Notes: a model not told the origin generated them from the letters alone. A stretch of DNA of 56,985 nt from Candidatus Buchananbacteria bacterium RIFCSPHIGHO2_02_FULL_39_17 (GCA_001817425.1 MHII01000006.1:1-56985), one strand, 5' to 3'. Positions 8,503 to 49,080 are shown, counted from the stretch's first letter. A program made the numbers and translations.

Positions 8503-8895
8503 TTAATGATCCTTACCAATCTTATTTTGCATCAACTGTTTTAGCTCAAAAGTATCAGCGTGCTGGCAAACTCCAAAATAAGATGAAAAATTGTGGCTGT
8601 TTATTCTGTACAAGAACCGATGTTTTGTTTTAGTTCGCAAAACGACACCATATGGCGAATGAACATAGCCGACAAAATCAATCCCCTGGCTCCAAGACCT
8701 AATGTTAATTTTGACCGGATGAATTTTTAATTTTAATTTCTCGTTTAAAAATACGCTAACTTTGGGAATAATGCTCAAAAGATAGTGACGAGATTGATTA
8801 ATAATTAAAAAATCATCGCAATACCTTAAGTACCATTTTTCTCTTAAGCTGTGCTTAATAAAATAATCAAGTTCATTTAAGATAAATATTAGCAA
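8503..8895 (-). CDS. DGR-type reverse transcriptase, C-terminal part (motif 5 YCDD, thumb)
   Basis: Contains NELDYFIKH...RYCDDFLII and GIDFVGY. It continues the upstream ORF if one A of the AAA run (plus-strand TTT at 8876-8878) is removed. Confidence 0.85.
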   Translation of the reverse strand: MLIFILNELDYFIKHSLREKWYLRYCDDFLIINQSRHYLLSIIPKVSVFLNEKLKLKIHPVKINIRSWSQGIDFVGYVHSPYGVVLRTKTKHRFLYRINSHNFSSYFGVCQHADTFELKQLMQNKIGKDH

Positions 8896-9571
8896 AAAGT
8901 TGACTTGTCAAATTACCAAGTGGCAGACCTTTGTTCGGCGCCTTAGAAAAACTACCAATAATATGCCTTAACAGTTTAATTGTTTTTTCGTCTTTAATTT
9001 GGCAGCAAATAAAATCTAAAAGAATATTATGGTCAATGCTGTCAAAAAATTTGCTGACATCACACTTTAAAGCATAAATAGTTTTAGTGTTATTCTGGCT
9101 AGCTTTTGACAAAAAATCACGCAGGCGATAGGAAGCGCCGTGAATGCCCTTGCCAATTCGGCAGGAAAAGCTATTAAAAATAAATCGTTTTTCAAAAATT
9201 GGCTCAATAATGTTGACTACGGCCTGATGGACAATTCTATCTTTTACCGTGGTTTTATGAATTTGGCGCTTTTTAGGATCATAAACAATAAAAGGCTGAT
9301 ATTTACCATGGCAATAATTTTGATTTTTTAATTCAGCCTGTAGATTAAAAAGATTCTCTTCTAAATTTCTTTCATAAATCATTACATCTCGGCGAGAGTG
9401 TTTGCTTTTGGCAAACTTATACCAAGCTAAAAAAACATTTTCTAGGAAGAAAATTTTATCATAAAGCGATTTACTGGTATAATTATTATTACCATGACCC
9501 AAAATGATTTTATTAATCCCCCCCCCAACGGGTCTTACGGAAAAAGCATGCTGGATATTCCGATTATTCAT
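8873..9571 (-). CDS. DGR-type reverse transcriptase, N-terminal part (motifs 1-4), ending at a frameshift
   Basis: Contains DPKKRQIHKTTVKDRIVHQAV, KCDVSKFFDSIDH and the motif-4 sequence GLPLGNLTSQ ([ILV]GxxxSQ, the DGR hallmark). The start is uncertain because it overlaps the divergent avd. Confidence 0.85.
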   Translation of the reverse strand: MNNRNIQHAFSVRPVGGGINKIILGHGNNNYTSKSLYDKIFFLENVFLAWYKFAKSKHSRRDVMIYERNLEENLFNLQAELKNQNYCHGKYQPFIVYDPKKRQIHKTTVKDRIVHQAVVNIIEPIFEKRFIFNSFSCRIGKGIHGASYRLRDFLSKASQNNTKTIYALKCDVSKFFDSIDHNILLDFICCQIKDEKTIKLLRHIIGSFSKAPNKGLPLGNLTSQLFANIYLK

Positions 9572-9889
9572 CTGCTTTATGATTTTTATAAATTATGGCA
9601 CAAAGTTAGTTTAAACTTCCCTAAATCCCAGCGCTACACCCTAGGGCAAATCTGCGGCACTGATTTGTTACTGCTTTTAAAAAATATCTTGGCCGCTTCG
9701 GCAACCAAAGATCGAAAAATAAAATTAGAAAAACTGCGCCAGGCCAGCATCAAGCTTGATCTGATAAAAATTCTTATCAGGTTAGCTAAAGACTGCGACT
9801 GCCTACAAAATAAATCATATTTAGAGCTTCAGTCAAAACTCCATGGTATCGGCAAGATGCTTGGCGGCTGGATTAAATCTCTTGAATAA
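9548..9889 (+). CDS. avd: four-helix-bundle protein, Avd-like (23S rRNA IVS protein family)
   Basis: PKSQRYTLGQ and ...LHGIGKMLGGWIKSL are typical of this family. It is adjacent to the RT and TR but on the opposite strand. Confidence 0.75.
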   Translation: MLDIPIIHLLYDFYKLWHKVSLNFPKSQRYTLGQICGTDLLLLLKNILAASATKDRKIKLEKLRQASIKLDLIKILIRLAKDCDCLQNKSYLELQSKLHGIGKMLGGWIKSLE

Positions 9890-9942: not shown

Positions 9943-10076
9943 CATTCCCAAAGACAGGAACCGCCCGGTGGCCGTGACGATTAGAAGCGTCGTCGGCCTT
10001 GAGCTTGACTTGACGATTATCGCAATTCCAGTTCAAGTTCGGCACGTATGACCAAGGCTGGTTGCCCGAAACAGAT
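9943..10076 (-). repeat. DGR template repeat (TR)
   Basis: Non-coding copy of the VR. On the minus strand it carries AAY codons at the positions that differ in the VR. Confidence 0.85.
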
Positions 10077-10103
10077 TAAATATTTCTATTCTTCCATTGC
10101 ACC

Positions 10104-10125
10104 GGACACAGGCGCACCCGTGTCC
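10104..10125. promoter_or_regulatory. GC-rich hairpin flanking the TR
   Basis: GGACAC-A-GG CGCA CC-C-GTGTCC, 28 nt from the TR end. Confidence 0.5.
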
Positions 10126-10398
10126 TGAATTTTATGCAAGATATAAGCTTGAAGCTTTATCTTAAAATAGAAATACGGAGTGCTTTACCATTGCTCTGCT
10201 CTCTTTTGACCGCCAACAGAAGCAGCCAAAACTTTGACAGATAAATGCAAGATAAAAAATTTCGGCGATTCCGATTCTTAAACCGGAATTCATAAGCCTA
10301 CTCTTTCGGTAATAATTATAGCATAATAAAAACAGGGTTTGAAGACCAAGATCCAAAAACCTTGAATTTCCAAACCCCAAAAGGCCAAGTACCGAATA

Positions 10399-11175
10399 CT
10401 AACACTCCACAAAGACAGGAACCGCCCGGTGGTAGTGACGAATAGAAGCGTCGTCGGCACTGAGCCTGACTTGACGACACCCGTAATGCCAGCACAAGTC
10501 CGGCACGTACGACCAAGGCTGGCTGCCCGAAATAGATAGCTGATAGCCAGGCAACCAGACGAACGGCACTTTGACGCCGTCCATTGCCTGTATCCACCGG
10601 GGGAAACAAGATGCCGCCCACAAGATTGCCGAAGGCAGCGAGGTTTTAGGAGTATGGACAGTTGGAGCAATGCCGTCTTTCTTATCCCAGTTGGCGGCGA
10701 AGTCAACTACTCGCCAGTGCAAACCGCGCTGATGAATAATGCCATCGAGCAACTTGAGATGATTTTCGTCGGACTTTACCTCGGGCCAGCGCCATTCACC
10801 TGGCTGAACCGCTTTGGTGAAATACCAGCCTTCTTCAAAAGTCCGGCTAACCGTGTCCAAAGACACATCCAGCACGACGGCGCAAAGATAGCCATCTGGC
10901 CAGGCCGGTGGCGGGCCAAGCGCTTCAAAGTCGGCTTCGGTAAAACCCCAATGGCGCTCGGCATTGCGCTGTCTGGTCAGTTCAAGTTGTTTTTCCGGCG
11001 GGATGAAAAACGACCGTCGGTCAATCAGCTTTGACACCTCCCGCATCACCTCGTCGGGATTAAGCGAGCCTTTACGGACGCGCTCAAACACATCGTGCTG
11101 GTGGCGGGCAAATTCGCCCAGCTTATCATCGGTGGGCACTACTCTTTTTTCGTCCGCGACAATTTCGGTTGTCAT
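10399..11175 (-). CDS. DGR target protein with a C-terminal variable region
   Basis: 258-aa GC-rich ORF. The last ~45 codons are the VR (...SGSQPWSYVPDLCWHYGCRQVRLSADDASIRHYHRAVPVFVEC). Confidence 0.8.
   Translation of the reverse strand: MTTEIVADEKRVVPTDDKLGEFARHQHDVFERVRKGSLNPDEVMREVSKLIDRRSFFIPPEKQLELTRQRNAERHWGFTEADFEALGPPPAWPDGYLCAVVLDVSLDTVSRTFEEGWYFTKAVQPGEWRWPEVKSDENHLKLLDGIIHQRGLHWRVVDFAANWDKKDGIAPTVHTPKTSLPSAILWAASCFPRWIQAMDGVKVPFVWLPGYQLSISGSQPWSYVPDLCWHYGCRQVRLSADDASIRHYHRAVPVFVEC
10403..10537 (-). repeat. DGR variable repeat (VR) at the 3' end of the target gene
   Basis: The 127-bp core 10411-10537 aligns without gaps to 9950-10076 with 18 mismatches. Twelve of them are at TR adenines on the minus strand. 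Confidence 0.85.
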
Positions 11176-11332
11176 GACAAATCCTCCTTATCCTTATTTG
11201 ACTGTCTTACAACCGGCAAGACTACGGTTTCTCTACTTTAGAGAATAATTAATTATATCATAAATTATTAATTTGTCAAGTCATAAATAATCTGCTAAAA
11301 TACATAGACATTACTAATCATAAATACTAATT

Positions 11333-27202: not shown

Positions 27203-27769
27203 TTATTTTTTAATCTTTAATTTTTTATTTTCTAAAATATCTGACTTTAATATTCCCATCATCACTTCATCATGCCACGCGCCGTCGCGAAAAGTGTGGT
27301 CGCGCTGCCGGCCTTCTAATTTAAAACCGATTTTTTTGTATGATTTCTGGCCGCGGATATTATAAGCAATAAAACGGAGATAGATCCGGTGCAGTTTTAA
27401 TTTTTTAAAACCATAATCAATTATTAATTTTCCCGCTTCCGTGCCATAACCTTGACCCCAATAGCGCTGGTCACCAATAAAAATACCATATTCCGCCCGC
27501 CGATGATATCGGTCAATTTTATTTAAGCCAATAGAACCAATTAGTTTGCCTTCGGTGGTGGTAATCGCTAAACGCAAATTATTTTTGTCGCGCCGGGCTT
27601 CCTTAATCCATTCAATTTCTTCTTTTAAAGCCGGCGGCGGCAGTTCGTAAATCGCCAAAAATTTGGTCACTTCCCGATCTTTTAACCAGCGGCAAAACCA
27701 CGGCGCGTCTTTCAAAGATAATGGACGCAGGACCACTGATCTTCCTTTAATAATTACTTTCTTTAACAT
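27203..27769 (-). CDS. GNAT family N-acetyltransferase (RimJ/RimL-like)
   Basis: YWGQGYGTEA and the surrounding GNAT core pattern. Confidence 0.8.
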   Translation of the reverse strand: MLKKVIIKGRSVVLRPLSLKDAPWFCRWLKDREVTKFLAIYELPPPALKEEIEWIKEARRDKNNLRLAITTTEGKLIGSIGLNKIDRYHRRAEYGIFIGDQRYWGQGYGTEAGKLIIDYGFKKLKLHRIYLRFIAYNIRGQKSYKKIGFKLEGRQRDHTFRDGAWHDEVMMGILKSDILENKKLKIKK

Positions 27770-27777
27770 ATCTGAAT

Positions 27778-27857
27778 AGCAAGATAAGTTATCAGCAAGA
27801 TAAGCAAGATAAGAAAAACGACTTATCTTGCTGATAACTTATCTTGCTTATCTTGCT
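27778..27857. repeat. very long hairpin built from the 9-mer CAAGATAAG family
   Basis: AGCAAGATAAGTTATCAG (27778-27795) pairs perfectly with CTGATAACTTATCTTGCT (27831-27848). An inner CAAGATAAG/CTTATCTTG stem is also present. The structure ends 9 nt from the GNAT start codon. Confidence 0.8.
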
Positions 27858-28308
27858 TAAAAAAAATCCAACCAGAAAAATTTTTCTGCCTGGGCCCCGG
27901 CCTGAATTATTTCAGGTGTCATCCTGAACTTGTTTCAGGATCTCGAGGAGGTTCCACCCTGCGAAAATACTCAATTTATTAAATTTGCCTAAGGTTTAGT
28001 CCCGGACAATGGGAGGTTTTTCGCCGCGGAGCTGGTAACTCCGCCAATCACCTTTAGGTGATTTTATTATAAAACCAATCTGAACTGCTGTCAATAAATT
28101 TAATACTTAACTAGGAAACCTCCTTTAAATAAAAAAAGTGTCATTGCGAGTCCCGACGTCAAGTCGGGACGAGGCAATCCATATTTAAGGATTGCAGAGC
28201 CTATCTCGAGCCCTTCAATTTCATTCAGGCTAAACTCCAGCGAGAGATCTCCTCCTCCTCGCAATGACAAAATAGCAATTATTTGTTATTATTTAATTAA
28301 TAAAAAGT

Positions 28309-28337
28309 CAACAAGTTCGTATAAAACTAGTTGTATG
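28309..28337 (+). repeat. minimal attC/attI-like site (S0)
   Basis: CAACAAGTT-CGTATAA-AACTAGTTG, then G|TTGTATG. Confidence 0.45.
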
Positions 28338-28411
28338 TCATTTTGTTTTTTACAATCGCTATAAAAAAAGATAGATGGAACTTCATCTATCATATGGGTA
28401 AAGAATAATGG

Positions 28412-28567
28412 TCAATCCACAAGTGTGACGACTGACCAACTAGCCCCGCATTTACCACACCAGAATGGCGTTTTTGTCCGACGATTGCATTCTGGGCATT
28501 TGTAAGCTTCAGGTGGTAAATACAGGTCACCTTTATTCATCTTAGCTTTAGTTTTACATGCTGGCAT
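28412..28567 (-). CDS. 51-aa zinc-ribbon cassette protein
   Basis: SD GGAGGG lies 8 nt upstream. CPEC and CGKC pairs are present. Below the ORF-track cutoff. Confidence 0.5.
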   Translation of the reverse strand: MPACKTKAKMNKGDLYLPPEAYKCPECNRRTKTPFWCGKCGASWSVVTLVD

Positions 28568-28643
28568 AGCCTATACCCTCCATAAAGAACCATTTATATT
28601 ATTAAATAACTATTCTTGTTTGTCAAACAAAAAAACAAAACGA

Positions 28644-28799
28644 CATATAACACGGTTTATGTGATTCCCCTCTCGACTCGTCGCTATGCTCCTCACTCGA
28701 GGTTCACCCAAATTTTGATATTATTTCTGTGATTTACTCCGCAATATTATATCACAGAAATAATTATCAAAACTTCATATAAACTGGTAACGTTAGGTG
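28644..28799 (+). repeat. attC-like imperfect palindrome (S1)
   Basis: Starts CATATAAC-ACGGT-TTATGTG and ends CATATAA-ACTGGTAAC-G|TTAGGTG. Extra unpaired bases lie on the 3' arm. Confidence 0.6.
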
Positions 28800-28842
28800 A
28801 TATAAATTTTTATTTATTACTAATAATAAATGTATGGGTTTA

Positions 28843-28992
28843 ATGGAACCAGCAATAAAGAGCAAAGAAGCTCTTGAAGCCATAGCTAGTGTCGCATCTA
28901 AGCCGTGGTATAAAAGAGTTGATTCTTGGCTTGTTATTGTCAATATTGTTGCATTGATAGTTAATATAACTATCATGTTAAAGCAACAATAA
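28843..28992 (+). CDS. 49-aa single-TM cassette peptide
   Basis: MEPAIKSKEALEAIASVASKPWYKRVDSWLVIVNIVALIVNITIMLKQQ fits inside cassette X. No clear SD. Confidence 0.3.
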   Translation: MEPAIKSKEALEAIASVASKPWYKRVDSWLVIVNIVALIVNITIMLKQQ

Positions 28993-29002
28993 AAATTTAC
29001 AC

Positions 29003-29044
29003 CACCTAACACCTGCTATACGGTTCGCTCCGGTAAATAAAATT
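29003..29044 (+). repeat. attC-like site, 5' half (S2 left)
   Basis: CACCTAAC-ACCTG-CTATACGG. CACCTAAC is the exact reverse complement of TTAGGTG at the start of cassette X. Confidence 0.55.
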
Positions 29045-29053
29045 AACATAAAT

Positions 29054-29359
29054 ATGACTTACTATATACTAACAATTATATTTTTACTTTTTCTAGGAGC
29101 TACAGCATCCGCTACGTTTGCGGAAAAAAGTCCAAGATCAGATCGACCAAGAATTTATTGGAATGAATCATTCTTAAAACTCATTGGTCTATTTTTATGG
29201 CCAACATTATTGCTTGGAATTATTATTCTATCCATGAATTGGAAATTATCTTTATTAATAATTATTCTTGCACTATTTCTACAAAAAATGATTTTAGTGC
29301 CAATATCTGAAAAAATAATTATTTCACCACTACACCTTCTGTTAAACAAGAAAAAGTAA
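29054..29359 (+). CDS. 101-aa membrane protein, bracketed by a 13-bp perfect inverted repeat
   Basis: Three hydrophobic helices. It lies between GGTAAATAAAATT (29032-29044) and AATTTTATTTACC (29380-29392). Confidence 0.5.
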   Translation: MTYYILTIIFLLFLGATASATFAEKSPRSDRPRIYWNESFLKLIGLFLWPTLLLGIIILSMNWKLSLLIIILALFLQKMILVPISEKIIISPLHLLLNKKK

Positions 29360-29379
29360 AAATATAATAATTAGGTACG

Positions 29380-29489
29380 AATTTTATTTACCTCGCTCAC
29401 CCAAATTTCGTTTTCACTTAGGCGGTTGCCTCCGGCAAATTATACCGCCACATTCAAACGAAACTTCGGCTAGCCCGTTCCGTTATACG
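29380..29489 (+). repeat. attC-like site, 3' half (S2 right)
   Basis: Central long stem (TTAGGCGGT..ACCGCCAC), then CTTCGGCTAGCCCGTTCC-G|TTATACG. It shares 25 identical nt with S5. Confidence 0.55.
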
Positions 29490-29516
29490 AAATTTTTGTA
29501 AAAATCCTTTAATATT

Positions 29517-30161
29517 ATGTTTTCAGAAAAAAAATTTTCTCTCGCTAACGAGGGTGAACCAAAAATAATTATCAAGCGTTCTACGGATGCCCCACCAGAT
29601 GTCAAACAAAACCCTTTTTACGATTCCGAATTTTGGGGGCGCGCTAATTCCCCAGATGATATCTACTTACCAGATTCTGATGAGGCGATATCTTTTGCGA
29701 TGGCGGCGCATGAGATCGGCCATCTAGTTAAAGCGGGTGAGAGAAATGACGCTCGTTTGGATAATTTTGAGGCTACCCGCGCCGAAGAACAACGTGCTTG
29801 GGATAAAGGCTGGGAATATTTGCAAGAATTTGTAGACGAGTATTATGCGGATAAACCAGAATGCGCCCCCAAAATTCGCCAAGCTTTTGAGCGTATAAAA
29901 ACCTTGCTTTTGCAAGCGACCGATTTAAGTAAAGGTATGTATCTTGAAAATGGTGCGCTTGATAATTTAGCTCCAGATGAAATTCAACGTATATTGGTAG
30001 AAAAACGAGAAAAATTTTTTTCTGAAAAAGGCGAACTCTTTAAAAATATTTTCGACGAAATGAAAAAAGAGAAAATTGGAATTAAGCCTGACTGGGACAA
30101 ATTCACCGCTATTGTTACTAAGGCCGTCGAAAATATTTTAAAAGACAACGATAAGGAGTAG
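29517..30161 (+). CDS. HExxH-motif protein (putative zinc metallopeptidase-like), cassette Y
   Basis: AAHEIGHLV motif. 214 aa. No closer family recognised. Confidence 0.55.
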   Translation: MFSEKKFSLANEGEPKIIIKRSTDAPPDVKQNPFYDSEFWGRANSPDDIYLPDSDEAISFAMAAHEIGHLVKAGERNDARLDNFEATRAEEQRAWDKGWEYLQEFVDEYYADKPECAPKIRQAFERIKTLLLQATDLSKGMYLENGALDNLAPDEIQRILVEKREKFFSEKGELFKNIFDEMKKEKIGIKPDWDKFTAIVTKAVENILKDNDKE

Positions 30162-30178
30162 AATTTTTACAAAAACAT

Positions 30179-30305
30179 CGTATAACACCGAATATACGGC
30201 TACGATAAAATTCCTTTTTACATTAATGAATTGATTTTTATCTCCGCCAAAATTTTTCTCCGCCTTTGGCTCCGAAAAACTTCGTATATTCGGATACGTT
30301 GTATG
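30179..30305 (+). repeat. attC-like imperfect palindrome (S3)
   Basis: Starts CGTATAAC-ACCGAATATACGG and ends CGTATATTCGG-ATAC-G|TTGTATG. The L arms are an 11-bp perfect inverted repeat. Confidence 0.65.
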
Positions 30306-30367
30306 ATATGTAACTTGTTGTTTAAGAAAGAAGACCCAGCATGAACTGAGTCTGTATGCAAGGTGTA

Positions 30368-30655
30368 TTAGTCAGCGAGACCAGCGGCGGCAATGAATTC
30401 CCGCAGTTCCCTTCTTTGCCCTTCTGGTCGGGCTAGGAATTTGGCGCGCTTTGGCAGAGTAAATAGGACACTACCATCCTGTTTAAGTTCTGCCTGCAGC
30501 GACCAGTGATCCTCGTCGGTAAGATCGTGAGTCGCTGATATTTCACCATCTGGTTTAACGGAAACATGGAAATTCGTAAACCATCTTTTCCGGTGCCTGA
30601 ACTCAAGTTCAAGCTTAAGGCCCATTCCTTCCAGTACCTCGACTTTTAGAAACAT
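30368..30655 (-). CDS. 95-aa GC-rich hypothetical protein, cassette Z
   Basis: SD GAGGAGGAGG lies 6 nt upstream of the ATG at 30655. Confidence 0.55.
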   Translation of the reverse strand: MFLKVEVLEGMGLKLELEFRHRKRWFTNFHVSVKPDGEISATHDLTDEDHWSLQAELKQDGSVLFTLPKRAKFLARPEGQRRELREFIAAAGLAD

Positions 30656-30806
30656 TGGATTCACCTCCTCCTCAAAGAACATTGACGATCTAGTCGTCTG
30701 GCAATGAGGCTAGGCCTCAGTTATTTCTTATTTGCCACTAGATCACAGATTACTTTATCATTATTAACAGTAGATGTCAAATCAAATCTAACAACAAGTT
30801 ACACAT

Positions 30807-30978
30807 CATACAACACGTTTTATGTGGTTCCCCTCTCGACTCGGCCGCTTTGGATAAACTCTGAGGCCTCGCTCGAGGTTCACCCAAATCGCTTGTCGTC
30901 TTAGGTGGTAGCGCCCACAGGCGCAATTATACCACCACGACGACTGCGCGACTTCATATAAACTGATAACGTTGTGTG
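30807..30978 (+). repeat. attC-like imperfect palindrome (S4), paralog of S1
   Basis: Starts CATACAAC-ACGTT-TTATGTGG and ends CATATAA-ACTGATAAC-G|TTGTGTG. Confidence 0.6.
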
Positions 30979-31105
30979 CCATTTTATTCAAAATATTTTA
31001 AATTTTATGATTAGAGCCCTTTTGAAATTTTTCTGAAATAAAAACCCCGCATCAGATGTTCCGAAGAACTCTCCGATACAGGGCGTTTGTACATGGCAGT
31101 GCGAC

Positions 31106-31243
31106 CTATGAGAGCCATACTAACAGCGCGGCAAGGCCGACGATGACGAAGTTTATGCCAATTCCAATTGCCCAGTCTTTCCATGAGTGAAACGGCCACA
31201 TATCATCTTGCCGAGGAAACGCTTTGACTGACAGAAAGAACAT
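31106..31243 (-). CDS. 45-aa single-TM peptide, cassette V
   Basis: SD GGAGAA is upstream. The sequence is MFFLSVKAFPRQDDMWPFHSWKDWAIGIGINFVIVGLAALLVWLS. Confidence 0.35.
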   Translation of the reverse strand: MFFLSVKAFPRQDDMWPFHSWKDWAIGIGINFVIVGLAALLVWLS

Positions 31244-31387
31244 ATTGTTCTCCTTTCCGATTATTAACTTTCACTATAAGTTACATCTCCTAATTTAGTA
31301 AGATAGCATGTTCTAACTAAAAAATCAAACCCATAGCAAAAAAATTTCAAAAGGGCTCTAATAATAAGGTATTTTTTAATAAAACAT

Positions 31388-31540
31388 CACCTAACACGTT
31401 TTATAAGGCTCGCGCCTTACCTAAGTCTTTCGGCTCGCGGATATTTTGTTCTCGCTTATGTGGTGTCCTCCGGACAATTTTACCACAACGTTCAAACGAA
31501 ACTTCGGCTAGCCCGATAACACGGTCTATCCGATTCGCGA
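31388..31540 (+). repeat. attC-like site (S5), apparently composite, last in the array
   Basis: Starts CACCTAAC-ACGTT-TTATAAGG and ends CTTCGGCTAGCCCG followed by ATAACACGGTCTATCCG, which looks like a new 5' half. Confidence 0.5.
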
Positions 31541-31564
31541 GTTAAATTTTGATAAGGCTAAAAT

Positions 31565-31594
31565 TTGACTTATTTATATTTTATCTAGTATAAT
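31565..31594 (+). promoter_or_regulatory. sigma70-like promoter for hicBA
   Basis: TTGACT, 18-nt spacer, TATAAT. Confidence 0.6.
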
Positions 31595-31602
31595 AAAGGC
31601 GT

Positions 31603-31827
31603 ATGAAAAATTCTTTTTTTACAGTCTATATTGAACAAGACGAGGATGGCATTTTCATCGGATCAGTACCATTAATACCAAGTTGTTATGCCCAAGGCAA
31701 AACTCAAGCAGAAATGCTTGACAATCTACAGGATGTTTTAAGGTTATGCCTTAGAAATATTGACAAGAAAATTTTAGAAAAAACGAAATTTGTCGGAGTC
31801 AAAAATGTAAAAGTCAAACATGCCTAA
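31603..31827 (+). CDS. hicB: HicB-family antitoxin (UPF0150-like)
   Basis: FTVYIEQDEDGIFIGSVPLIPSCYAQGKTQAEMLDNL. It overlaps hicA by 8 nt. Confidence 0.8.
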   Translation: MKNSFFTVYIEQDEDGIFIGSVPLIPSCYAQGKTQAEMLDNLQDVLRLCLRNIDKKILEKTKFVGVKNVKVKHA

Positions 31828-32044
31828 ACTCGTACCGATAAAGCCAAAAAAAATTATCAAAATTTTGCTTAAGCTTGGATTTACAAAACGTGATGCCGAA
31901 GGGTCTCACGTATTTTTTAAACATCTTGACGGACGAACTACAGTCGTGCCAATTCATTCTCAAGAAATTAGCAAAGGATTACTTAGAAAAATACTTAATG
32001 ATATCCAATTGGCTGTAGAAGAATACGATAAATTAAGAAAATAA
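31820..32044 (+). CDS. hicA: HicA-family mRNA interferase toxin
   Basis: KKIIKILLKLGF...GSHVFFKH...VVPIHSQEISKGLLRKIL pattern. Confidence 0.85.
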   Translation: MPKLVPIKPKKIIKILLKLGFTKRDAEGSHVFFKHLDGRTTVVPIHSQEISKGLLRKILNDIQLAVEEYDKLRK

Positions 32045-32201
32045 AAAAAACTAATTTTTCAATTCCTCTTTTTTCATTTCATTAATACAAAATTCTAGCA
32101 AAGCCTTCCTCCCCTTAAGATAGGGGGGGGGTAGGAGGGGTTATAATTTCAAAACTTCATAACTTCCCTTACAACTCTTAATCTTAAGAGAGGCATTAAA
32201 A

Positions 32202-33356
32202 TTACTCCCCAATCTTAATCTCAATCTTGTCTTGCAGCCTTGGCGTTTTTTTCAGCCAAAATGGTTTGAATTTGATTTGAACAGATTTAATTTGCGGAAA
32301 TTGGGAAAAGTAGGACTGAACTTGTTCTTCGGTTAAACCGGTTAGTTTAGCTTTATCAATTAAAGAGGCGGCTTGGGCTAACACTGAACTGGCCAACAAT
32401 TTAACTTTAATTTTGGCGGTTTTGTTTTCCAAATTATACTCTAAAACTTCGTATTTAAAACTTTTAGGATCCAAATCAACCAATTGTTTTTCCGCCGGTA
32501 AACCGGCTTTGATTTTCTCTCTGGCTTTAGCGATTAAAGCGGGCTCGTCAAAAACCACGACAATCGCTTTTAATTTCATCGTGCCACTAAACTGCGTTGC
32601 CTCGGCGTTGGCTTGAGTATCAAACTTAGCCTCTTCCATGTTGGCCGAGACCAATTTTGGCCACAAAGATTGCTGCTGGTCTAACTGCTGGTTTACTTGA
32701 GTTAAAGCCCGCCGGTAAAGTTGGTCTTTTAAGGTCGCCTCGGCGTTAGTTAAATCTTTTTGCTCAACGAAATTAATGATATTACTGCCAGCACTCAAAG
32801 TTGTTTCATTTTCGGCATAAATTTTATCTTGCAAACCCGCCCACAAACCAGGAATAATCAGGCGGGCTGGTTTCAATTCCTTAAAATTTTCTTTATCCTC
32901 GGCGTAAACCGGCACTTTTATTTTTTTGCCCGCCGACACCGCCACATTACTTTTTAGACGCAAAATCACTTTTTCCGGATTAGCCGGTAAGGCCAAACGG
33001 GTTGAAGCAATTAGCGCTTGCTCTTTTGAATAATTATTGATAATCGTCACCTCGCCGACAATATCAGACTCGCCTTTTTTACTGCCCGTGGCCGTAAAAC
33101 TGCTGGTTTGGGAAACTTCAACCATTTTAATTATTCCCTTAATAATGTCATTGATTTCCAAGCTAGTTAGGCCAACATCTTCTTTAATAATAAAATCAAA
33201 TTCTTGATTAATCTGTTCGGCACTGGGCGCTAAATGAATCGTGACCTTGGCCCAAATCAGATAGCTCGTCAAAATTAAAATCAACAAAGATAGGCTAAAA
33301 AAAACCACGCCAATTTTACCATAAATTTTTGGCAATAAAATATCTTTTTTGACCAT
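32202..33356 (-). CDS. N-terminally anchored hypothetical protein
   Basis: 384-aa ORF with one TM helix and a beta-rich extracytoplasmic part. Confidence 0.55.
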   Translation of the reverse strand: MVKKDILLPKIYGKIGVVFFSLSLLILILTSYLIWAKVTIHLAPSAEQINQEFDFIIKEDVGLTSLEINDIIKGIIKMVEVSQTSSFTATGSKKGESDIVGEVTIINNYSKEQALIASTRLALPANPEKVILRLKSNVAVSAGKKIKVPVYAEDKENFKELKPARLIIPGLWAGLQDKIYAENETTLSAGSNIINFVEQKDLTNAEATLKDQLYRRALTQVNQQLDQQQSLWPKLVSANMEEAKFDTQANAEATQFSGTMKLKAIVVVFDEPALIAKAREKIKAGLPAEKQLVDLDPKSFKYEVLEYNLENKTAKIKVKLLASSVLAQAASLIDKAKLTGLTEEQVQSYFSQFPQIKSVQIKFKPFWLKKTPRLQDKIEIKIGE

Positions 33357-44889: not shown

Positions 44890-45136
44890 GAAACTTTTTT
44901 TCTTGCCCCGCACTAATTCCAAATATTAATTGGGTTTAAAAAAATGTAAGCCATAGGCGATTTCGCGCGAAATTAACAAAAAATAAAGTGGGGCTATTCG
45001 CGGAATTTAGTGCGTGGTGCTCGTCATTCAAACTTTTCAAATTCAATTCCATAGATATACTTTAGCATAAAAACATGATTAATTTAAGGGTTATTTTTAA
45101 CATTCGCATGTGCACATTCGTAGTGCGCTTTCGCAT

Positions 45137-45189
45137 ACAAAAAATCCGCTTTCGGTCTTCGTGAAAACAAAGAATTCCGAAAGCGGATT
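45137..45189 (-). terminator. intrinsic terminator of the fucose-isomerase-like gene
   Basis: AATCCGCTTTCGG / CCGAAAGCGGATT stem, followed by a T-run on the minus strand. Confidence 0.75.
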
Positions 45190-45209
45190 GGGAGTTGAAG
45201 TTTACCCTC

Positions 45210-46805
45210 CTAAGCGGCCAAAAGTTTTTGACCAGCTTCGCCTGCCACCCGGGTGGGAATTCCCAAATGCAGACAGGTGGCGATCAATTCCGGCAAAATA
45301 TCGCCGTAACCGATGGTAATGTGATTGCTCATATGAGTTGCCATCAGCTGATCTCGGTCATAGCCCGGAATATGGACATTGGCAATCGGCCAAACATTTG
45401 TTGTCTGATCCAGCCGATTTTTGACCTCGATGTCGGGCATCTCTATGACTTCACCGATGCCGCAATCCATGCCGATTTGACCAAAACTCTCATAGAAACG
45501 CGCCCAAGTAATGGTGCCGGGTTTAGAAACCCCAGAACAAGTACCGCCGCCCTTAGGAAAATACATCTTGGGCTGGCGATAAATCTTGGTTTTCTCCCAG
45601 CCGCCGAAATGAGCTGGTGGCGCTGCGCCGGAAATCTCAAAAACCCAGACGAATCGGCCGTCATAATCCTTGCCGTACCGAACATCATGAAGCGTGGTTT
45701 CTGTCGGCATACCCTTGAGCTTATAAATATCATGCATTAGGATTTGCGGCACGCCAGAGCCAACATCACCCTCGTTAAAGTGAGGAACCGCTTGATTAAG
45801 TCGAATGGCTCTACCGGTTTCCGGATCCACGATAATTGGCCGATCTTCGTTGTTCAACATTCCTTCAACTAAATCTGACGCCGGGACACATCGTACCAAA
45901 CCAAGCTGGTATGGAATGCCAATCGCAGCTAAACCATAACGTTGAACAAACCGTCCGGCCGCCGAATACATCTTCATTTGAGACATCACCATCGCTTCTG
46001 TTAACTGTTCATCGGGATTATTGCCCCAATCAAACCAAACATTATTACCTTTCAACCAGTCGAAGTGCCCGGTGGCCTCTTCGTCACTGACCAGCTCCAT
46101 CTCGGCTAAAAGGTCAGACTGATTCAGTAATTCAAGGGGCATACCAATGCCTGCCAAATTGCCAAGATCCATGACCGCGTTCAACATACCCATACAGCCA
46201 GGATCCAATTGGCCGAGAATACGCTTGTAGCGCAAAATATCAACGGCCAGCTTTTCACCAAAATGATCAGCCGCTCTTGATAAAGTCAGATCTCTTCCGT
46301 CAATGAGATGGTCTTTTTTATAGCTGATTGAGCCAGCGGTAACCCAGTGGCTAAGCCGCTTCATGAAAATCGGATCATCACCAAAATTCTTGCTCCACAA
46401 CCGGGAATACTTAACTCCCAGCCGGTCCAAAGTGCCAGCGTGGTTAAGTAAGGCCACCAGCCCGGGCCAAGTCCCGTCGAAATTCGCGATGAGCACAATC
46501 GGACCACGGTGGGTCTTAAGGCAAGTGCAAACATGATGAGCATACGCCCAGCAACTAAGCACAATCACGACTGGCGCTTCAGGAGGTATCTGGGCAAAAA
46601 TTGCCGCACCTTCACATTGCTTGGTGACAAAACCGTGTTTGCGGTCCGGATTGAATTCCGGCAAAACTTTGGTTTTAACACTAAGCTTCTTAAAAGCGGC
46701 TTGGACCGCCCGTAAAGTTTCTTGATGCTTTGGCCAGCAAACCACACCAGCTGAGTCTCGAAAATCACCGTTTGACACCAAATAAACCGTTTTCTTGTTT
46801 CCCAT
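45210..46805 (-). CDS. L-fucose/L-arabinose isomerase family-like protein (specificity unknown)
   Basis: 531 aa. The overall pattern and the C-terminal ...ATHMSNHITIGYGD... resemble FucI-type isomerases. GC-rich. SD GGAG. Confidence 0.5.
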   Translation of the reverse strand: MGNKKTVYLVSNGDFRDSAGVVCWPKHQETLRAVQAAFKKLSVKTKVLPEFNPDRKHGFVTKQCEGAAIFAQIPPEAPVVIVLSCWAYAHHVCTCLKTHRGPIVLIANFDGTWPGLVALLNHAGTLDRLGVKYSRLWSKNFGDDPIFMKRLSHWVTAGSISYKKDHLIDGRDLTLSRAADHFGEKLAVDILRYKRILGQLDPGCMGMLNAVMDLGNLAGIGMPLELLNQSDLLAEMELVSDEEATGHFDWLKGNNVWFDWGNNPDEQLTEAMVMSQMKMYSAAGRFVQRYGLAAIGIPYQLGLVRCVPASDLVEGMLNNEDRPIIVDPETGRAIRLNQAVPHFNEGDVGSGVPQILMHDIYKLKGMPTETTLHDVRYGKDYDGRFVWVFEISGAAPPAHFGGWEKTKIYRQPKMYFPKGGGTCSGVSKPGTITWARFYESFGQIGMDCGIGEVIEMPDIEVKNRLDQTTNVWPIANVHIPGYDRDQLMATHMSNHITIGYGDILPELIATCLHLGIPTRVAGEAGQKLLAA

Positions 46806-46854
46806 TCAAACTTTCTCCTTTCTGCCAAACCCAGTTTCTATAGATCCCTATATC

Positions 46855-46923
46855 AAAAATTGGAAAGGAACAGCCCCTCCAAAAACTACCCCCTATCTTA
46901 ACCAATCACTAATAAAAAGTCAA
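46855..46923 (-). promoter_or_regulatory. promoter plus conserved leader hairpin (copy 1)
   Basis: On the minus strand: TTGACT, 17 nt, TAAGAT, then the leader GTTTTTGGAGGGGCTGTTCCTTTCCAATTTTT. A paralogous copy lies at 49114-49177. Confidence 0.6.
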
Positions 46924-47108
46924 GGTTATTAATTTTTCTTATTATTTATCCTTGATTTATCATACTAATATATTAATATGTTAATATATTAATTTATTAA
47001 TATAAAAAAATAAATAAAAAACCCGCTCTGATATTTTCATACCAAAACGGGCAAAATTCAAATAACAAATCACCAACGCGAATAGCACCACCGAGCGGCA
47101 CGACGAGA

Positions 47109-47252
47109 CTAAGGCTCAAAGACGTTTATGCCTAAACGCGCGGCTTCGGCCTTATCTTGTGCCAAACGTCTCTGCCGGTTTCTTTTCTTGTGCGCCGAAG
47201 CCCGGAGCTGATTTGGCGTGCCCTGACTTTTTCGACCACGATTATTGTCCAT
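47109..47252 (-). CDS. 47-aa highly basic peptide
   Basis: SD AAGGAGGG lies 4 nt upstream of the ATG at 47252. The sequence is MDNNRGRKSQGTPNQLRASAHKKRNRQRRLAQDKAEAARLGINVFEP. Confidence 0.45.
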   Translation of the reverse strand: MDNNRGRKSQGTPNQLRASAHKKRNRQRRLAQDKAEAARLGINVFEP

Positions 47253-47424
47253 CTCGCCCTCCTTGTTTAGCTTGCCAAGCCGTGCAGCATCGGCAAAGCA
47301 TCCCGCTATTTCTCCGCGTCTTTTCACAGGCGCGGCTGCCAGGTTGATTATTGCATCTTTTGGGCTTGCCGGGAACGCGGCTCTGATGTTGTCCGTGTTT
47401 TCCACTCATGCCATCATCTCTCCT

Positions 47425-48297
47425 TTATAGGTAAGAGGGTGATGAACTCGGTGCAATTGATTGAGCCGAAACCACCACTAATGCCTTGTTAATCTGATCG
47501 CGCAATTCTTCGGCTTTTTTGGCCGCGACTTCAGCGAAATCCCGGCCGCGCGAGGCATGAATAATCCCGCTGGAGGAGTTAATGACGTAAAGATATTTGC
47601 CGGCATTGGTCAGGGTTTTTTTTAAATCACCTTTTTGTGTGCCAATGCCCGGAATCAGCATCAAGCAGTCATCTGGCACATTCCCGTCAAGTTCCTTTAA
47701 TTGATCCGGAAAGGTCGCACCCATAACAATGCCCACGGCCGCGGTTTCAGGCGTTTTAAGTTTGGTCGCTGCAGCGGCTATAATCACAAACAGCCCCACA
47801 TTAAAAGGATGCGGCTGGGCTTCCTGAAATTCCCGCGCACCTTCGTTTGAAGTATGAGACAAAACCAAAATCGCATGCTTTGGGCCCCACTTCAGAAATG
47901 GTACGAGCGTATCAGTTCCAAGATAAGCATTGACCGTCACGGCATCAGCGCCATAGCGTTCAAAAGCGGCCCGGGCATATTTCTCTGCGGTTCTGCCGAT
48001 GTCGCCGTATTTAGCGTCCAAAATCACGGGCAATCCGTGTTCGTGCTTGATGAAACGAATCAATTTTGCCAGTTCGTTTTCCGCGCCAATCGCCGCCCAA
48101 AAACCCAGATTCGGTTTAAAAACACAGGCAAATTTGGCAGTGGCTTCAACGATTCTGGTCGCAAAATTAAGCAAACCGCCGGGTGAATAATCTACGCCTT
48201 CAGGCCACTTTTCGTCGTCAGGATCAATGCCGATGCAAACATGAGATTGACGCTCATGCTGAATCTCTCGCAAACGTTGTTCAAAACTTTCACTCAT
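47425..48297 (-). CDS. pyrF: orotidine 5'-phosphate decarboxylase, type 2
   Basis: Motifs CIGIDP, ILDAKYGDIGRTA, DAVTVNAYLG, HTSNEGA and LIPGIGTQKGD. Confidence 0.85.
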   Translation of the reverse strand: MSESFEQRLREIQHERQSHVCIGIDPDDEKWPEGVDYSPGGLLNFATRIVEATAKFACVFKPNLGFWAAIGAENELAKLIRFIKHEHGLPVILDAKYGDIGRTAEKYARAAFERYGADAVTVNAYLGTDTLVPFLKWGPKHAILVLSHTSNEGAREFQEAQPHPFNVGLFVIIAAAATKLKTPETAAVGIVMGATFPDQLKELDGNVPDDCLMLIPGIGTQKGDLKKTLTNAGKYLYVINSSSGIIHASRGRDFAEVAAKKAEELRDQINKALVVVSAQSIAPSSSPSYL

Positions 48298-48345
48298 CTA
48301 TTATTCCTCCTTTCCTCTTGACTTGATGCTTTTACTCCAACAAGA

Positions 48346-49080
48346 TTACGCTGCGGTTGTTAATTCGGCCCAGCCCTCCGGCGTATTAGGCCTGATGGCT
48401 TTAGAGCCAAGCGCACATAACGGGCAATCATCTTTCCAGCTTTTAATTTCGTACCTGACCATCGGTAGAATCTGGACACCGTCAACCGCAGCCTCTCGGA
48501 CCGTACGCCGATCCACAACCAAAGGCAGAAACGGAATGAATTCTGTTTCAGGGTTAGCTTCCTGAAAACCCGCCGTGACTAAACGGAAAGTCTTAGCCGT
48601 GGTCATTAGTTCTTCAACCCGAAGAACTTTTGTTCCAGCCGGCATCTTTGGTCCCGTGTATTTCTGCTTTTCAACTTCCTCGCCGCATTCTTTAACCGTG
48701 ACTTTGTGCATCGGATAGACGCGCGCGCCAAACAGACGGCCAACCGCATAAGCAAGATTGAGAGAAGCCGTATCCGAACCAATGACACAGTCAACCGAAC
48801 CCTTATGGCATGACCGCAGAAGGGCAACGAGCTGTGCCGCCAAGACATCGCAGAGATTGGTCATTGACATAACAATCCTTAAATTGACAAAACCAGTGCT
48901 GCAATCTCCAGCTGTCAATTTAGCATGAGGCACTTCAGCCCGAAATTCACCCGGATAAAGCCAAAGTGAATTTGTGGCCTGAATGATTGCCGTGACATCA
49001 TCCGGCGACAAAGGGCCACTGAACGAACCGACCTGCAACTTAATCAGTTCTTCACTTGAAACTCCAGCAAGTAATCCCAT
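48346..49080 (-). CDS. pyrE: orotate phosphoribosyltransferase-like type I PRTase
   Basis: PRPP loop VLRVEELMTTAKT, HAKLTAGDCS and the C-terminal CPLCALG, as in the Thermus-type PyrE subfamily. Substrate is inferred. Confidence 0.6.
   Translation of the reverse strand: MGLLAGVSSEELIKLQVGSFSGPLSPDDVTAIIQATNSLWLYPGEFRAEVPHAKLTAGDCSTGFVNLRIVMSMTNLCDVLAAQLVALLRSCHKGSVDCVIGSDTASLNLAYAVGRLFGARVYPMHKVTVKECGEEVEKQKYTGPKMPAGTKVLRVEELMTTAKTFRLVTAGFQEANPETEFIPFLPLVVDRRTVREAAVDGVQILPMVRYEIKSWKDDCPLCALGSKAIRPNTPEGWAELTTAA

Follow-up and report, generated by a model that had tools for sequence, protein, structure and literature searches.

A probable integron-like cassette array, apparently of an undescribed type, in a Patescibacteria genome

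Introduction

What kind of element strings together a few very small genes between structured repeats, and do its parts move? The question is raised by a contig of Candidatus Buchananbacteria bacterium RIFCSPHIGHO2_02_FULL_39_17, of which we analyzed a stretch of 56,985 nt (hereafter, the 57-kb window). A sequence-only reading had described part of it as a cassette array without an integrase, its units set between attC-like sites and obeying the rule expected if each unit had once been a circle closed through one site. Here we compare the array with related loci and weigh that description against other explanations. In the motifs below, a slash marks a boundary, as in G/TT.

Results

Anatomy of the array

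From 28300 to 31560, ORF-bearing modules alternate with structured junctions of 110-170 nt, here called S elements. The features are as follows (strand is given where one was assigned).

27770-28299: non-coding stretch, in the place of the recombinase gene and its promoter in related loci
28300-28330, + strand: attI-like core site, ATAAAAAGTCAACAAGTTCGTATAAAACTAG/TT, a match to the conserved site of related loci
28331-28651: gene module 1, arms 28330-51 and 28630-51
28652-28791, + strand: S1 junction, hit by the nhmmer L and R profiles
28792-29010, + strand: gene module 2, arms GTTAGGTGATAT... and ...ACACCACCTAAC, arm match 18/20
29011-29481, + strand: S2, split junction, left half 29011-29044, right half 29381-29481
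29482-30186, + strand: gene module 3, arms GTTATACGAAATTTTTGTAAAAAT and ATTTTTACAAAAACATCGTATAAC
30187-30297, + strand: S3 junction, short hairpin-2 type, perfect 11-bp L stem CCGAATATACG and CGTATATTCGG
30298-30814: gene module 4, framed by inverted repeat I5, arm match 19/20
30815-30970, + strand: S4 junction, same type as S1 (repeats D4, D10, D15)
30971-31395: gene module 5, arm tips degenerate (14/20), 31-nt inner inverted repeat
31396-31520, + strand: S5, hybrid junction, right half 80% identical to the right half of S2
31521-31560, + strand: further left-half start (ACGGTCTATCCGATTCGCGAG), then arm-like TTAAATTTTGATAAGGCT; abuts S5, array end
31603-32044, + strand: HicB-HicA toxin-antitoxin pair (Pfam), just past the last site

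The array starts between G28330 and T28331, and its modules share the frame G/TT, arm, reverse complement of the arm, AAC/. All six junctions of the sequence-only reading exist at the positions it gave, with corrections to their anatomy. Its 5-nt gap from AAC to the L arm is 1-3 nt instead, and its first site, S0 (28300-28330), is no attC-like hairpin but a copy of the attI-like core. The element that it joined from 29003-44 and 29380-29489 is real and proves to be one site, S2, split by an embedded ORF for a 101-aa membrane protein (29054-29359), with the hairpin-1 stem, GGTAAATAAAATT and AATTTTATTTACC, on either side; this layout recurs in L055, L047, L045, L061, L088, and L043, and is thus a regular architecture elsewhere (L numbers denote related loci). 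S1 displays the order L'' GTTTATGTG, hairpin 1, TCACCCAAAT, long hairpin 2, ACTTC, L' CATATAAAC, and TGGTAAC. The short type of S3 resembles the first site of L073. In S5, L'' and L' do not pair with each other, and the terminus is GATAAC without GTT (...CCCGATAAC), set directly against another left-half start (ACGGTCTATCCG...) with no module between.

Modules 1 to 5 encode, respectively, a 51-aa zinc-ribbon protein (28412-28567, minus strand), a 52-aa ORF (28834-28992), a 214-aa HExxH protein (29517-30161), and ORFs of 104 aa (30368-30682, minus strand) and 45 aa (31106-31243, minus strand); modules 1 and 4 have their own promoter-like and terminator-like sites. The non-coding stretch at 27770-28299 contains a perfect 27-nt palindrome (27778-27848, I2) and GC-rich stem-loops, and within it we found no ORF with a family hit, no Rfam hit, and no similarity to recombinases.

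The inverted repeats said to frame the modules are present: I4 (28321-51/28630-60, 31 nt, 84%), I12 (28792-814/28988-29010, 23 nt, 91%), I7 (29482-508/30160-86, 27 nt, 89%), and I5 (30298-322/30790-814, 25 nt, 96%). As had also been claimed, each arm matches the next site rather than its own: when the 20 nt from GTT are compared with the reverse-complemented 20 nt up to and including the next AAC, 18, 18, 19, and 14 positions agree, against 11-12 at best on the own-site side. The lowest value belongs to the fifth pair, already recognized as degenerate, and just inside it lies a further repeat, I1 (31005-35/31337-67, 31 nt, 94%). The mosaic sharing of parts is equally evident, with S1 and S4 alike at their left ends (D4, 37 nt, 92%) and right ends (D10, 28 nt, 89%), and the right half of S2 alike to S5 (D3, 83 nt, 80%, tail identical). 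The arm rule cannot by itself fix the crossover at G/TT.

A family of sites in other genomes

The hairpin-2 motif alone retrieved 60 metagenome loci, where we estimate about 5 by chance, and 12 loci in GTDB genomes, mostly named Patescibacteria. Features that the search did not force recur in them, namely TCACCCAAAT, YAAC/AC, and GTT followed by RNNYG-MMAT. Our nhmmer profiles locate 110 right halves in 60 loci, in a single orientation per locus and with up to 13 in 9.7 kb. The arm rule holds at 16-19 of 20 positions in about 55 of 93 cassettes (control side, about 11), with systematic differences at positions 10-11. Most related sequence consists of metagenome assemblies, in which repeats can give chimeras.

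The S elements of the family have perfect L stems of 9-11 bp and 3-4 extra nt (xAAC) on the L'-R' side. Extra unpaired bases on the 3' arm had been predicted; the likeness to attC drawn from them fails, as real attC sites have the extra base on the opposite arm, in L'' (aadA2 GTTCAAGCC/GGCTTAAC, VIM-2, aacA4). At least 9 types of L arm occur, free in sequence and complementary without exception, which points to recognition of structure rather than sequence. Hairpins 1 and 2 covary. At least two Watson-Crick types are seen at 16 of 25 consensus pairs, and the pairing cells are Watson-Crick in 560 of 575 cases, with 2 G.T and 5 A.C, counts that reveal no strand preference. ORFs can sit inside S sites, and in L055 the positions 'between' and 'inside' alternate. 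By inspection, attI-like sites and left junctions have an 11-6-11 geometry and right junctions 11-9/10-11, with dif-like arms; there are no binding or cleavage data. We found no account of the system in the searchable literature, and we assign the array to an apparently undescribed integron-like system of the Patescibacteria (CPR bacteria) with a Xer-like recombinase.

The recombinase and its adjoining site

The claim that the window encodes no recombinase stands: tblastn with IntI1, XerD, three recombinases of the array-linked family, and Hin gives only background across the 57 kb, and Pfam identifies none among the unassigned ORFs. Within these 57 kb, a scope that leaves out the rest of the genome, this copy has lost the recombinase gene or never had one; any activity must therefore come in trans, and only in trans could the array be rearranged.

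Related loci do have such genes. Searches with tblastn found tyrosine recombinase genes in L073, L061, L088/L090, and L050/L087, all of them divergent from their arrays; starting from the protein instead led to L118 and to L115, an 842-kb Nomurabacteria contig, where the arrays are likewise divergent. In each of six independent loci, 45-80 nt separate the divergent gene from the start of the array upstream of it, with the attI-like core in between; this is the integron arrangement of an integrase gene divergent from its array with attI at the junction. The conserved site, TAAAATGTCAACAGGTRCRTATATACAKT/GTT, lies at this distance of 45-80 nt in L061, L088, L115, L117, L118, and L119, and the window keeps a copy of it at 28300-28330, without the gene. 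HicB-HicA homologues adjoin the recombinase gene in L088/L090 and lie within the L041 array.

The array-linked recombinases are 282-295 aa long, and their neighbours are conserved housekeeping genes. Their best NCBIfam match is NF040815 (XerA/'integron integrase'), above its cut-off, and their best PDB matches are XerA structures. The integron integrase model TIGR02249 gives only 196-220 against a cut-off of 265, aligning in two stretches, and in alignments with IntI1 both IntI-specific insertion segments are missing. The array-linked recombinase may simply be the chromosomal Xer.

Cargo turnover at the module ends

Recombinase and attI are identical between L118 and L119, whose first cassettes differ. 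In two further sets of loci (L063/L067; L072/L059/L082), the same cassette plus S element is shared and the DNA changes immediately after its GTT. At the other boundary, one ORF-bearing S module occurs in four different upstream contexts, with divergence at YAAC/A, and a homologue of module 3 in L085 (75% identical, same arms) has different S elements on both sides. The AAC/ boundary is as sharp as /GTT, and gene modules and S modules reassort independently. Such turnover of cargo exactly at GTT and AAC between the same sites, for which the sequence-only reading had proposed a search, means that its interpretation as recombination sites and cassettes was right. That core is borne out as well by the occurrence of the site family in arrays, the adjoining tyrosine recombinases with an attI-like site, and the arm rule elsewhere; the integrase-less array and its circle logic are supported, and the closeness to integrons is not.

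Variants and contig breaks in the population cluster in S elements. The two best-documented structural variants, neither of them a crossover at G/TT, are a deletion of 28716-29396 that passes through the TCACCCAAATTT repeat, and L028, which diverges inside S5 and continues with a different complete right half and a methyltransferase cassette.

Discussion

A model for the array

We think it probable that the cassette array in the window belongs to a platform for site-specific recombination that is integron-like and widespread in Patescibacteria, with junctions that fold single-stranded and modules that are rearranged in trans. Where a copy is complete, the gene for a tyrosine recombinase of Xer/XerA type points outward from the array, a dif-like duplex core (attI-like, 11-6-11) lies 45-80 nt upstream of this gene, and modules would be added or exchanged at the conserved ...G/TT. 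Each S element would comprise two inverted imperfect core copies, one per end, the left junction being arm-TAA/C-A-L'' and the right one ACTTC-L'-xAAC-G/TT-arm. On a single strand both copies are predicted to pair, the L stem and arm stem stacking to give a dif-like duplex in which 3-4 nt bulge out, and the S element may resemble attC, or the attP of phage CTX, in its folded form. Cutting after TAA by a recombinase monomer on the ATTTC/ACAYC...TAA arm is inferred without binding or cleavage data. The enzyme lacks the I2 domain and the sites lack attC-type extrahelical bases, from which we infer that either strand can react; this would account for reassortment on both sides, of gene modules and of S modules alike, whether or not the latter contain an ORF. 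In the window itself, five to six modules are left together with the attI-like site, without a recombinase gene. Single-strand folding, on which the model depends, has no direct evidence, and the complementarity of module ends would also follow from inverted duplex sites carried with the modules.

Alternative explanations

Such duplex sites are the basis of the strongest alternative, which we regard as unlikely without setting it aside. On this view the array is built of modules with duplex Xer sites, comparable to the pdif modules on Acinetobacter plasmids: every junction would be an ordinary double-stranded dif-like site in alternating orientation, with no single-strand folding, each gene or S module would carry half of each flanking site, and the interior of S (its hairpins and TCACCCAAAT) would be accessory sequence. 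The alternation of modules with inverted arms, and of 'between' and 'inside' ORFs in L055, suits it, as do the two sharp boundaries with independent reassortment, the 11-6-11 geometry, judged by eye, of the left junction and attI-like site, and the Xer-like recombinase. The sequence of the right arm, TTAKGYGAAAT, is similar to that of the XerD arm in E. coli dif, TTATGTTAAAT. There is also precedent in pdif modules between inversely oriented sites (cited in PMC9771954). Inverted duplex sites, however, would invert DNA rather than move it, yet each array keeps one orientation; and the right-junction spacer, 9-10 nt by inspection, is long for a duplex tyrosine-recombinase site. Nor would plain duplex sites lead one to expect the unfailing complementarity of at least 9 sequence-free L-arm types or the covariation of hairpins 1 and 2.

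Non-autonomous transposons, either MITE-like elements with terminal inverted repeats or hairpin elements of the IS200/IS605 type inserting after TAAC, are a very improbable source. Their case rests on the 20-24-nt terminal inverted repeats of the gene modules, TAAC on both sides of several modules, and one 'empty' junction, GATAAC/ACGG at 31515-31524, which is unique among the loci examined. Target-site duplications are lacking (left flank xAAC, ATAC, or TTCC; right flank ACNG), deleting S leaves no palindromic target, and neither the window nor the flanks of the arrays contain a transposase, HUH (Y1), or TnpB. The S ends pair with each other, without the separate subterminal hairpins of IS200/IS605, and orientation within the arrays is strictly uniform, with a recombinase gene and its conserved core site as their anchor.

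It is harder still to maintain that the array is a canonical integron remnant (CALIN), with ordinary attC sites and IntI encoded elsewhere. The AAC...GTT polarity and arm rule fit, as do the array layout, the nearby toxin-antitoxin pair, and relatives with a divergent recombinase and adjoining attI; exchange at GTT is seen, and five S sites without a recombinase stand in the 57-kb window, though they are not attC by the model test below. AAC and GTT occur at all complete sites; strict R 7-mers occur at only two left ends (29004, 31389) and one right end (28792), and the rest read RYRYAAC/GTTRYRY. A covariance check of the kind proposed with the original claim put the S elements at background. 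Our proxy model (R1, from 8 class-1 attCs) scores true attCs, including 2 held out, at 47-69 bits, yet no S element comes within E<=10, whether from the window or from the 7 related arrays scanned; with filters off, its best score in 27700-32300 is 8.5 bits. The S sites are thus not attC by model test, and they lack the extrahelical bases on L'' and the 5/6-nt unpaired central spacer, the bulge being on the opposite arm. The recombinases are without the IntI insertion (the TIGR02249 shortfall above), and genes do not keep their own downstream site, contrary to the integron rule of a gene with its own attC exchanged only at G/TT.

Finally, the idea that the junctions play no part in recombination and are structured RNAs made by transcription (the refuting outcome named in the sequence-only reading), or else intrinsic terminators or REP-like repeats, would account for the strong structural conservation with invariant unpaired TCACCCAAAT, ACTTC, and AATTATA, but hardly merits belief given no Rfam match at gathering score in the window (only hairpin-like miRNA noise at E<=10), no terminator-like S element where cassettes carry their own terminators, G.U-type pairs at 2/575, cargo turnover exactly at site ends, and linkage of the sites to a recombinase.

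Comparison with known systems

With integrons, the family shares a recombinase gene divergent from a co-oriented array with a duplex attI adjoining, imperfect palindromes with invariant AAC...GTT and crossover at G/TT (inferred here), complementarity between a cassette's start and its far end, and small, mostly unknown cargo plus toxin-antitoxin pairs. Integrase-less attC arrays, or CALINs, are common (PMC9668308). The family differs in that its recombinase has no IntI-specific domain and its sites fail the attC covariance model, with R-L spacings of 1-3 and 4-7 nt rather than 5 and 6 nt, unpaired bases on the other arm, and R-box pairing over 12-24 bp rather than 7 bp. The interior of S is a conserved three-way structure with invariant motifs that can hold an ORF, genes are not tied to one site, and cassettes have their own promoters.

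CTX-phi and other IMEX, which enter the chromosome at dif by means of the host Xer recombinases, share with the family a Xer-type enzyme without the I2 domain, arms that resemble dif arms, and two inverted dif-like sites that fold, as a single strand, into a duplex-like stem with a bulged centre (in the S elements, a predicted fold). The IMEX reaction was named the sole one resembling cassette recombination (Escudero et al., 2016; PMC4792948). Unlike these elements, the family does not consist of a single phage genome but strings many small gene modules into arrays, with a dedicated conserved site beside the recombinase gene and a folded site conserved across many genomes.

The pdif (XerC-XerD) modules are similar as discrete units, carrying toxin-antitoxin and accessory genes between inversely oriented Xer-type sites that alternate along the array, and as modules found in different contexts. 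Their sites, in contrast, are plain 28-bp duplexes for XerC and XerD, borne on Acinetobacter plasmids, without a 110-170-nt structured element, a recombinase-adjacent entry site, or 20-24-nt arms.

Among the single-recombinase Xer systems (XerS/difSL, XerH/difH, and archaeal XerA), XerA is the nearest both by solved structure and by NCBIfam model, and the XerS and XerH systems have their site beside the recombinase gene, as the attI-like site is here. Their function is chromosome dimer resolution, and no cassette arrays are known from them.

Structured junctions alternate with gene modules

Across 28300–31560, stretches bearing open reading frames (ORFs) alternate with structured junctions, here called S elements (S1 to S5), an arrangement claimed in the sequence-only reading and borne out by our own reading of 27800–32200 and by a repeat finder. 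The locus is found in many aquifer metagenome assemblies and is set among housekeeping genes:

One side of the array: ThrRS and a GNAT acetyltransferase
Other side of the array: a 384-aa protein, DnaE, PheT and PheS

A search of genome contigs found no relatives of the 384-aa protein. There are no tRNA or tmRNA genes in the window and no Rfam matches in the window or the array region, and Pfam returned only weak zinc-ribbon matches and HicAB for the cassette ORFs.

The S elements share one layout: ...YAAC|A(C), an inner arm L'' (9–11 nt), hairpin 1, TCACCCAAAT, a long hairpin 2, (A)ACTTC, the complementary inner arm L', 4–7 nt, and |GTT.... Folding as a single strand with DNA parameters, a check suggested at the outset, pairs L'' with L' and leaves two internal hairpins. 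The 20–24 nt that follow GTT are the reverse complement of the 20–24 nt ending at the next AAC (inverted repeats I4, I12, I7 and I5), and this rule, also proposed earlier, holds in the window at 18, 18, 19 and 14 of 20 positions versus 11–12 on the site's own side. Elsewhere, roughly 55 of 93 cassettes match at 16–19 of 20. It follows from the rule that the two arms are parts of a single unit; on its own the rule does not place the crossover at G|TT, because any breakpoint within S would give the same pattern, and comparative data are therefore needed. Arm positions 10–11 differ systematically (GAAAT in the right arm versus GATGT in the reverse complement of the left arm), so that a folded site would carry a conserved two-base mismatch. 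As had been noticed, the sites share modules: according to the repeat finder, S1 and S4 have both ends in common (repeats D4 and D10), and the right part of S2 has 83 nt in common with S5 (D3).

ORFs can also lie inside a site. The hairpin-1 loop of S2 holds one of 101 aa, and the same split layout, YAAC-A-L''-GGTTC...TAAATAAAATTATT, an ORF of 300–800 nt, then AATAATTTTATTTA...TCACCCAAAT...L'-GTT, occurs in six related loci (L055, where it appears three times, L047, L045, L061, L088 and L043). In L055, ORF positions alternate between sites and inside them. Several cassettes have promoter-like and terminator-like sites of their own; the S elements are not terminator-like.

Two further features of the arms were observed. 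Seven loci of one sub-family (L052, L057, L060, L063, L067, L073, L086) have a GC-rich, conserved insertion of about 60 nt (..CCACGCTGCGCTCTCGC..CGCTCGGGG) between the left arm and YAAC. In L042, L045, L072, L084 and L086, one arm pair (GTTAGCTGAAATATTCCTTT and its complement) frames modules of 504 to 3974 nt, measured to the matching arm; such a pair may serve repeatedly to frame different cargo.

A family of structured sites in Patescibacteria

A pattern taken from hairpin 2 only (CTTAKGYGGT...AATTWTACCRC...ACTTC) matched 60 loci in public metagenome contigs versus an estimated 5 or so by chance, and 12 loci in GTDB reference genomes, most of them titled Patescibacteria or Nomura-, Komeili-, Peri-, Sacchari- or Gracilibacteria. 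Features that the pattern does not force recur in the matches: TCACCCAAAT, the left end YAAC|AC, and GTT followed by RNNYG-MMAT. Two scans of viral contigs gave no match to S patterns. With profile HMMs built from the two S halves, we found 110 right halves in the 60 loci, co-oriented within every locus; L041, a contig of 368 kb, has 13 within 9.7 kb, L038 has 7 and L080 has 6. Arrays are present in reference genomes too. The array in the window belongs to a widespread Patescibacteria system.

Twenty-five base pairs make up the consensus fold of 23 complete elements; 16 of them occur as two or more Watson-Crick types, and 560 of the 575 pair cells are Watson-Crick, with 2 G.T and 5 A.C. Complementarity is kept through at least nine different L''/L' sequences. 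Judged from this sequence covariation, the S structure is under selection, and with wobble pairs nearly absent DNA is a better fit than RNA. The difference between G.T and A.C counts, like that between alifold energies (−14.0 for the top strand, −16.7 for the bottom), is too weak to call the reactive strand.

An attI-like site beside a Xer-like recombinase gene

Searches of the window agree with the earlier claim that it encodes no recombinase, and no remnant of one was found in the 530 nt upstream of its attI-like site. In related loci, tblastn with XerD and IntI1 (the latter query matching plasmid copies at 100% identity) detected tyrosine recombinases in L073, L061, L088/L090 and L050/L087, all divergent from the array. 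A protein-first homologue search gave divergent arrays in L118 and in L115, an 842-kb Nomurabacteria contig continuous with array locus L113; two short loci, L117 and L119, contain cassette starts.

The array-linked recombinases are 282–295 aa long. Their best NCBIfam model, scoring above its cut-off, is NF040815 (XerA, ‘site-specific tyrosine recombinase/integron integrase’); the integron integrase model TIGR02249 falls short of its cut-off, its alignment broken into two stretches. Among solved structures those of XerA come closest, followed by VchIntIA. In the alignment, both IntI-specific insertion segments are absent, and a C-terminal SPLD motif is held in common with IntI1. Xer-related enzymes of candidate phyla have been grouped as ‘Cand’, a subgroup with no assigned element (Smyshlyaev et al., PMC8138268).

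Between the recombinase gene and the array lies a conserved site, TAAAATGTCAACAGGTRCRTATATACAKT|GTT, 45–80 nt upstream of the recombinase start codon, and the first cassette starts at its GTT. By inspection, this attI-like site can be read as 11-6-11, for example AGTTCGCCTAT CCACAG TTAGGCGAAAT in L061. Its arms, like those of the junctions, resemble the arms of dif; in E. coli the XerD arm is TTATGTTAAAT. The window holds a clear copy at 28300–28330, ATAAAAAGTCAACAAGTTCGTATAAAACTAG|TT, so what had been read as the first attC-like junction (28309–28337) is instead an orphan attI-like site.

Cassettes turn over, and gene and site modules reassort

That the same sites would flank different cargo in related loci was confirmed. 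L118 and L119 have an identical recombinase and attI-like site followed by different first cassettes, and elements at least 95% identical over the 200 nt before G|TT lead into unrelated DNA from the fourth base on (L063 versus L067; L072, L059 and L082). One ORF-bearing S module occurs in four upstream contexts that diverge at YAAC|A, and a homologue of the 214-aa gene of the window, 75% identical, is found in L085, where the arms are almost the same and the S elements to either side are different. Each kind of module, gene or S, reassorts independently of the other.

The region is variable in the population, as seen from variants and from the many contigs of other samples that end within S elements. 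A 681-bp deletion (28716–29396) through a 12-nt TCACCCAAATTT repeat is present in at least three samples (L011/L023, L025, L027); it joins the left of S1 to the right of S2 and removes module 2 with the embedded 101-aa ORF. TCACCCAAAT could serve as a secondary site, given its resemblance to the left-arm consensus TCACCTAAC. L028, another variant, keeps the left part of S5 and continues with a different right half and a methyltransferase cassette. In the window, S5 ends in GATAAC and abuts a new left half, as would be expected after the precise loss of one gene module; no other such empty junction was found among the loci examined. Simple crossovers at G|TT do not account for the best-documented variants in the population. 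L022, which had looked like a variant, was rejected as a scaffold gap of N's only.

Other differences between samples were observed nearby. L025 has a replaced segment in the GNAT gene (window 27407–27473) and a 65-bp tandem duplication in module 1 (28357–28421). The window's last 50 nt (56934–56985, GTATAAGTCCACCCAAC TTTGCACTCTTGAGG...) appear as their reverse complement immediately upstream of hicB in other samples (L014, L015, L018, L032; compare 31541–31560), which suggests a strain variant in which roughly 25 kb is inverted, or some other rearrangement, with ends at arm-like GTT sequences. A further arrangement, with hicA truncated at 31849, is found in L032.

An alternative is that the junctions are duplex pdif-like sites that recombine without single-strand folding. 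This would account for the alternation and for independent reassortment, but not for the uniform orientation of the arrays or for L arms conserved in structure only. We dropped the idea that each junction is the attC of its upstream gene, since the same gene module occurs with different junctions and the same junction module with different upstream genes. Insertion of S as a MITE into a palindromic AAC|GTT target is rejected, as an S element is not flanked by matching arms.

Flanking sequence

Just beyond the GNAT gene, at 27778–27862, a perfect 27-nt palindrome (27778–27804/27822–27848) overlaps tandem CTTATCTTGCT repeats; miRNA-like Rfam matches there are spurious. The following 440 nt or so (27860–28299), the position at which relatives have the recombinase gene, contain no ORF and have GC-rich stems (for example GTCATTGCGAG...CTCGCAATGAC at 28139–28270), with no Rfam match and no similarity to other loci.

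At 8503–9889, a reverse transcriptase gene (RVT_1) is split into two ORFs (8873–9571 and 8503–8895, minus strand) and adjoins a 131-aa four-helix-bundle-like ORF (9494–9889); together they look like a decayed diversity-generating retroelement. L115 has an intact RVT_1 and bAvd pair between its recombinase gene and S array. HicAB pairs sharing 69–80% identity with the pair in the window occur immediately next to the recombinase gene in L088/L090 (8612–9047) and inside the array in L041 (7278–7715). Two blocks, 10000–11200 and 45000–49000, have a G+C of 0.47–0.50 versus about 0.38; one holds an ORF without family match (10399–11175), the other a fucose-isomerase-like gene and pyrimidine-pathway-like genes, and both may have been acquired horizontally.

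A proposed site logic

The right junction may be read as ACTTC-RYATAW, 8–10 nt, TTAKGYGAAAT, and the left as an inverted, imperfect copy of it with a 6-nt centre. Pairing between the two within a single strand would give a dif-like duplex bulged by 3–4 nt. If a monomer on the ...TAA arm cuts after TAA, the break would fall at G|TT in one strand and at TAA|C in the opposite one, and reactivity of both strands would account for the two sharp boundaries.

The feature is real, and reading it as a recombination-site cassette array without an integrase was right. What it represents we can propose only tentatively, and with somewhat less than even conviction: an undescribed gene-capture platform of Patescibacteria, standing between Xer/dif and integrons as an evolutionary intermediate or a parallel invention. 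It would combine a Xer/XerA-type recombinase lacking the I2 helix, an entry site resembling dif next to the recombinase gene, and folded sites with dif-like sequence at each end, inside which genes can ride. Both strands would be reactive, so that gene modules and site modules shuffle independently, and incoming single strands could be the natural substrate, given that Patescibacteria depend on DNA uptake. If true, these reduced, symbiotic CPR bacteria have a dedicated route for taking up and shuffling accessory genes; cargo seen includes toxin-antitoxins, restriction and methylation genes, transporters and many small proteins.

We did not find the system described in the searchable literature, whose coverage is incomplete, and a description elsewhere is possible. 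On integrons or attC in Patescibacteria/CPR, only resistome surveys were found, and the IntegronFinder 2.0 paper makes no mention of these phyla. Standard integron finders need an IntI domain and a classical attC model, and would probably overlook the whole family.

Comparison with integrons and Xer/dif

The origin of integrons is open; IntI is believed to have arisen from a Xer-like enzyme by gain of the I2 helix, which brought single-strand recombination with it, and the hijacking of XerCD by CTX-phi has until now been the only comparable reaction (PMC4792948, PMC7790495). A Xer-type cassette platform without I2, with dif-like arms, a folded site and attI beside the gene, would make the Xer-to-IntI transition testable. 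The proposed pairing of junctions follows the same logic as folded attC and folded CTX-phi attP (PMC4792948).

The resemblance to attC is only partial. What stood of that claim is an array of recombination sites and cassettes. A covariance model of eight real attC sites, from class-1 integrons on plasmids, scored true attCs at 47–69 bits, including two left out of the model, but S elements went undetected both in the window and in seven related arrays; run without filters, the model scored no higher than 8.5 bits in 27700–32300. The extra bases reported on the 3' arm are there (xAAC, 3–4 bases, beside perfect L stems), yet not as in attC, since real attCs carry theirs on L'', with spacers of 5 and 6 nt. 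S elements can, moreover, hold an ORF within the site, and the array-linked recombinase lacks the IntI-specific insertion. The system works like an integron, yet fails several of the tests that define one.
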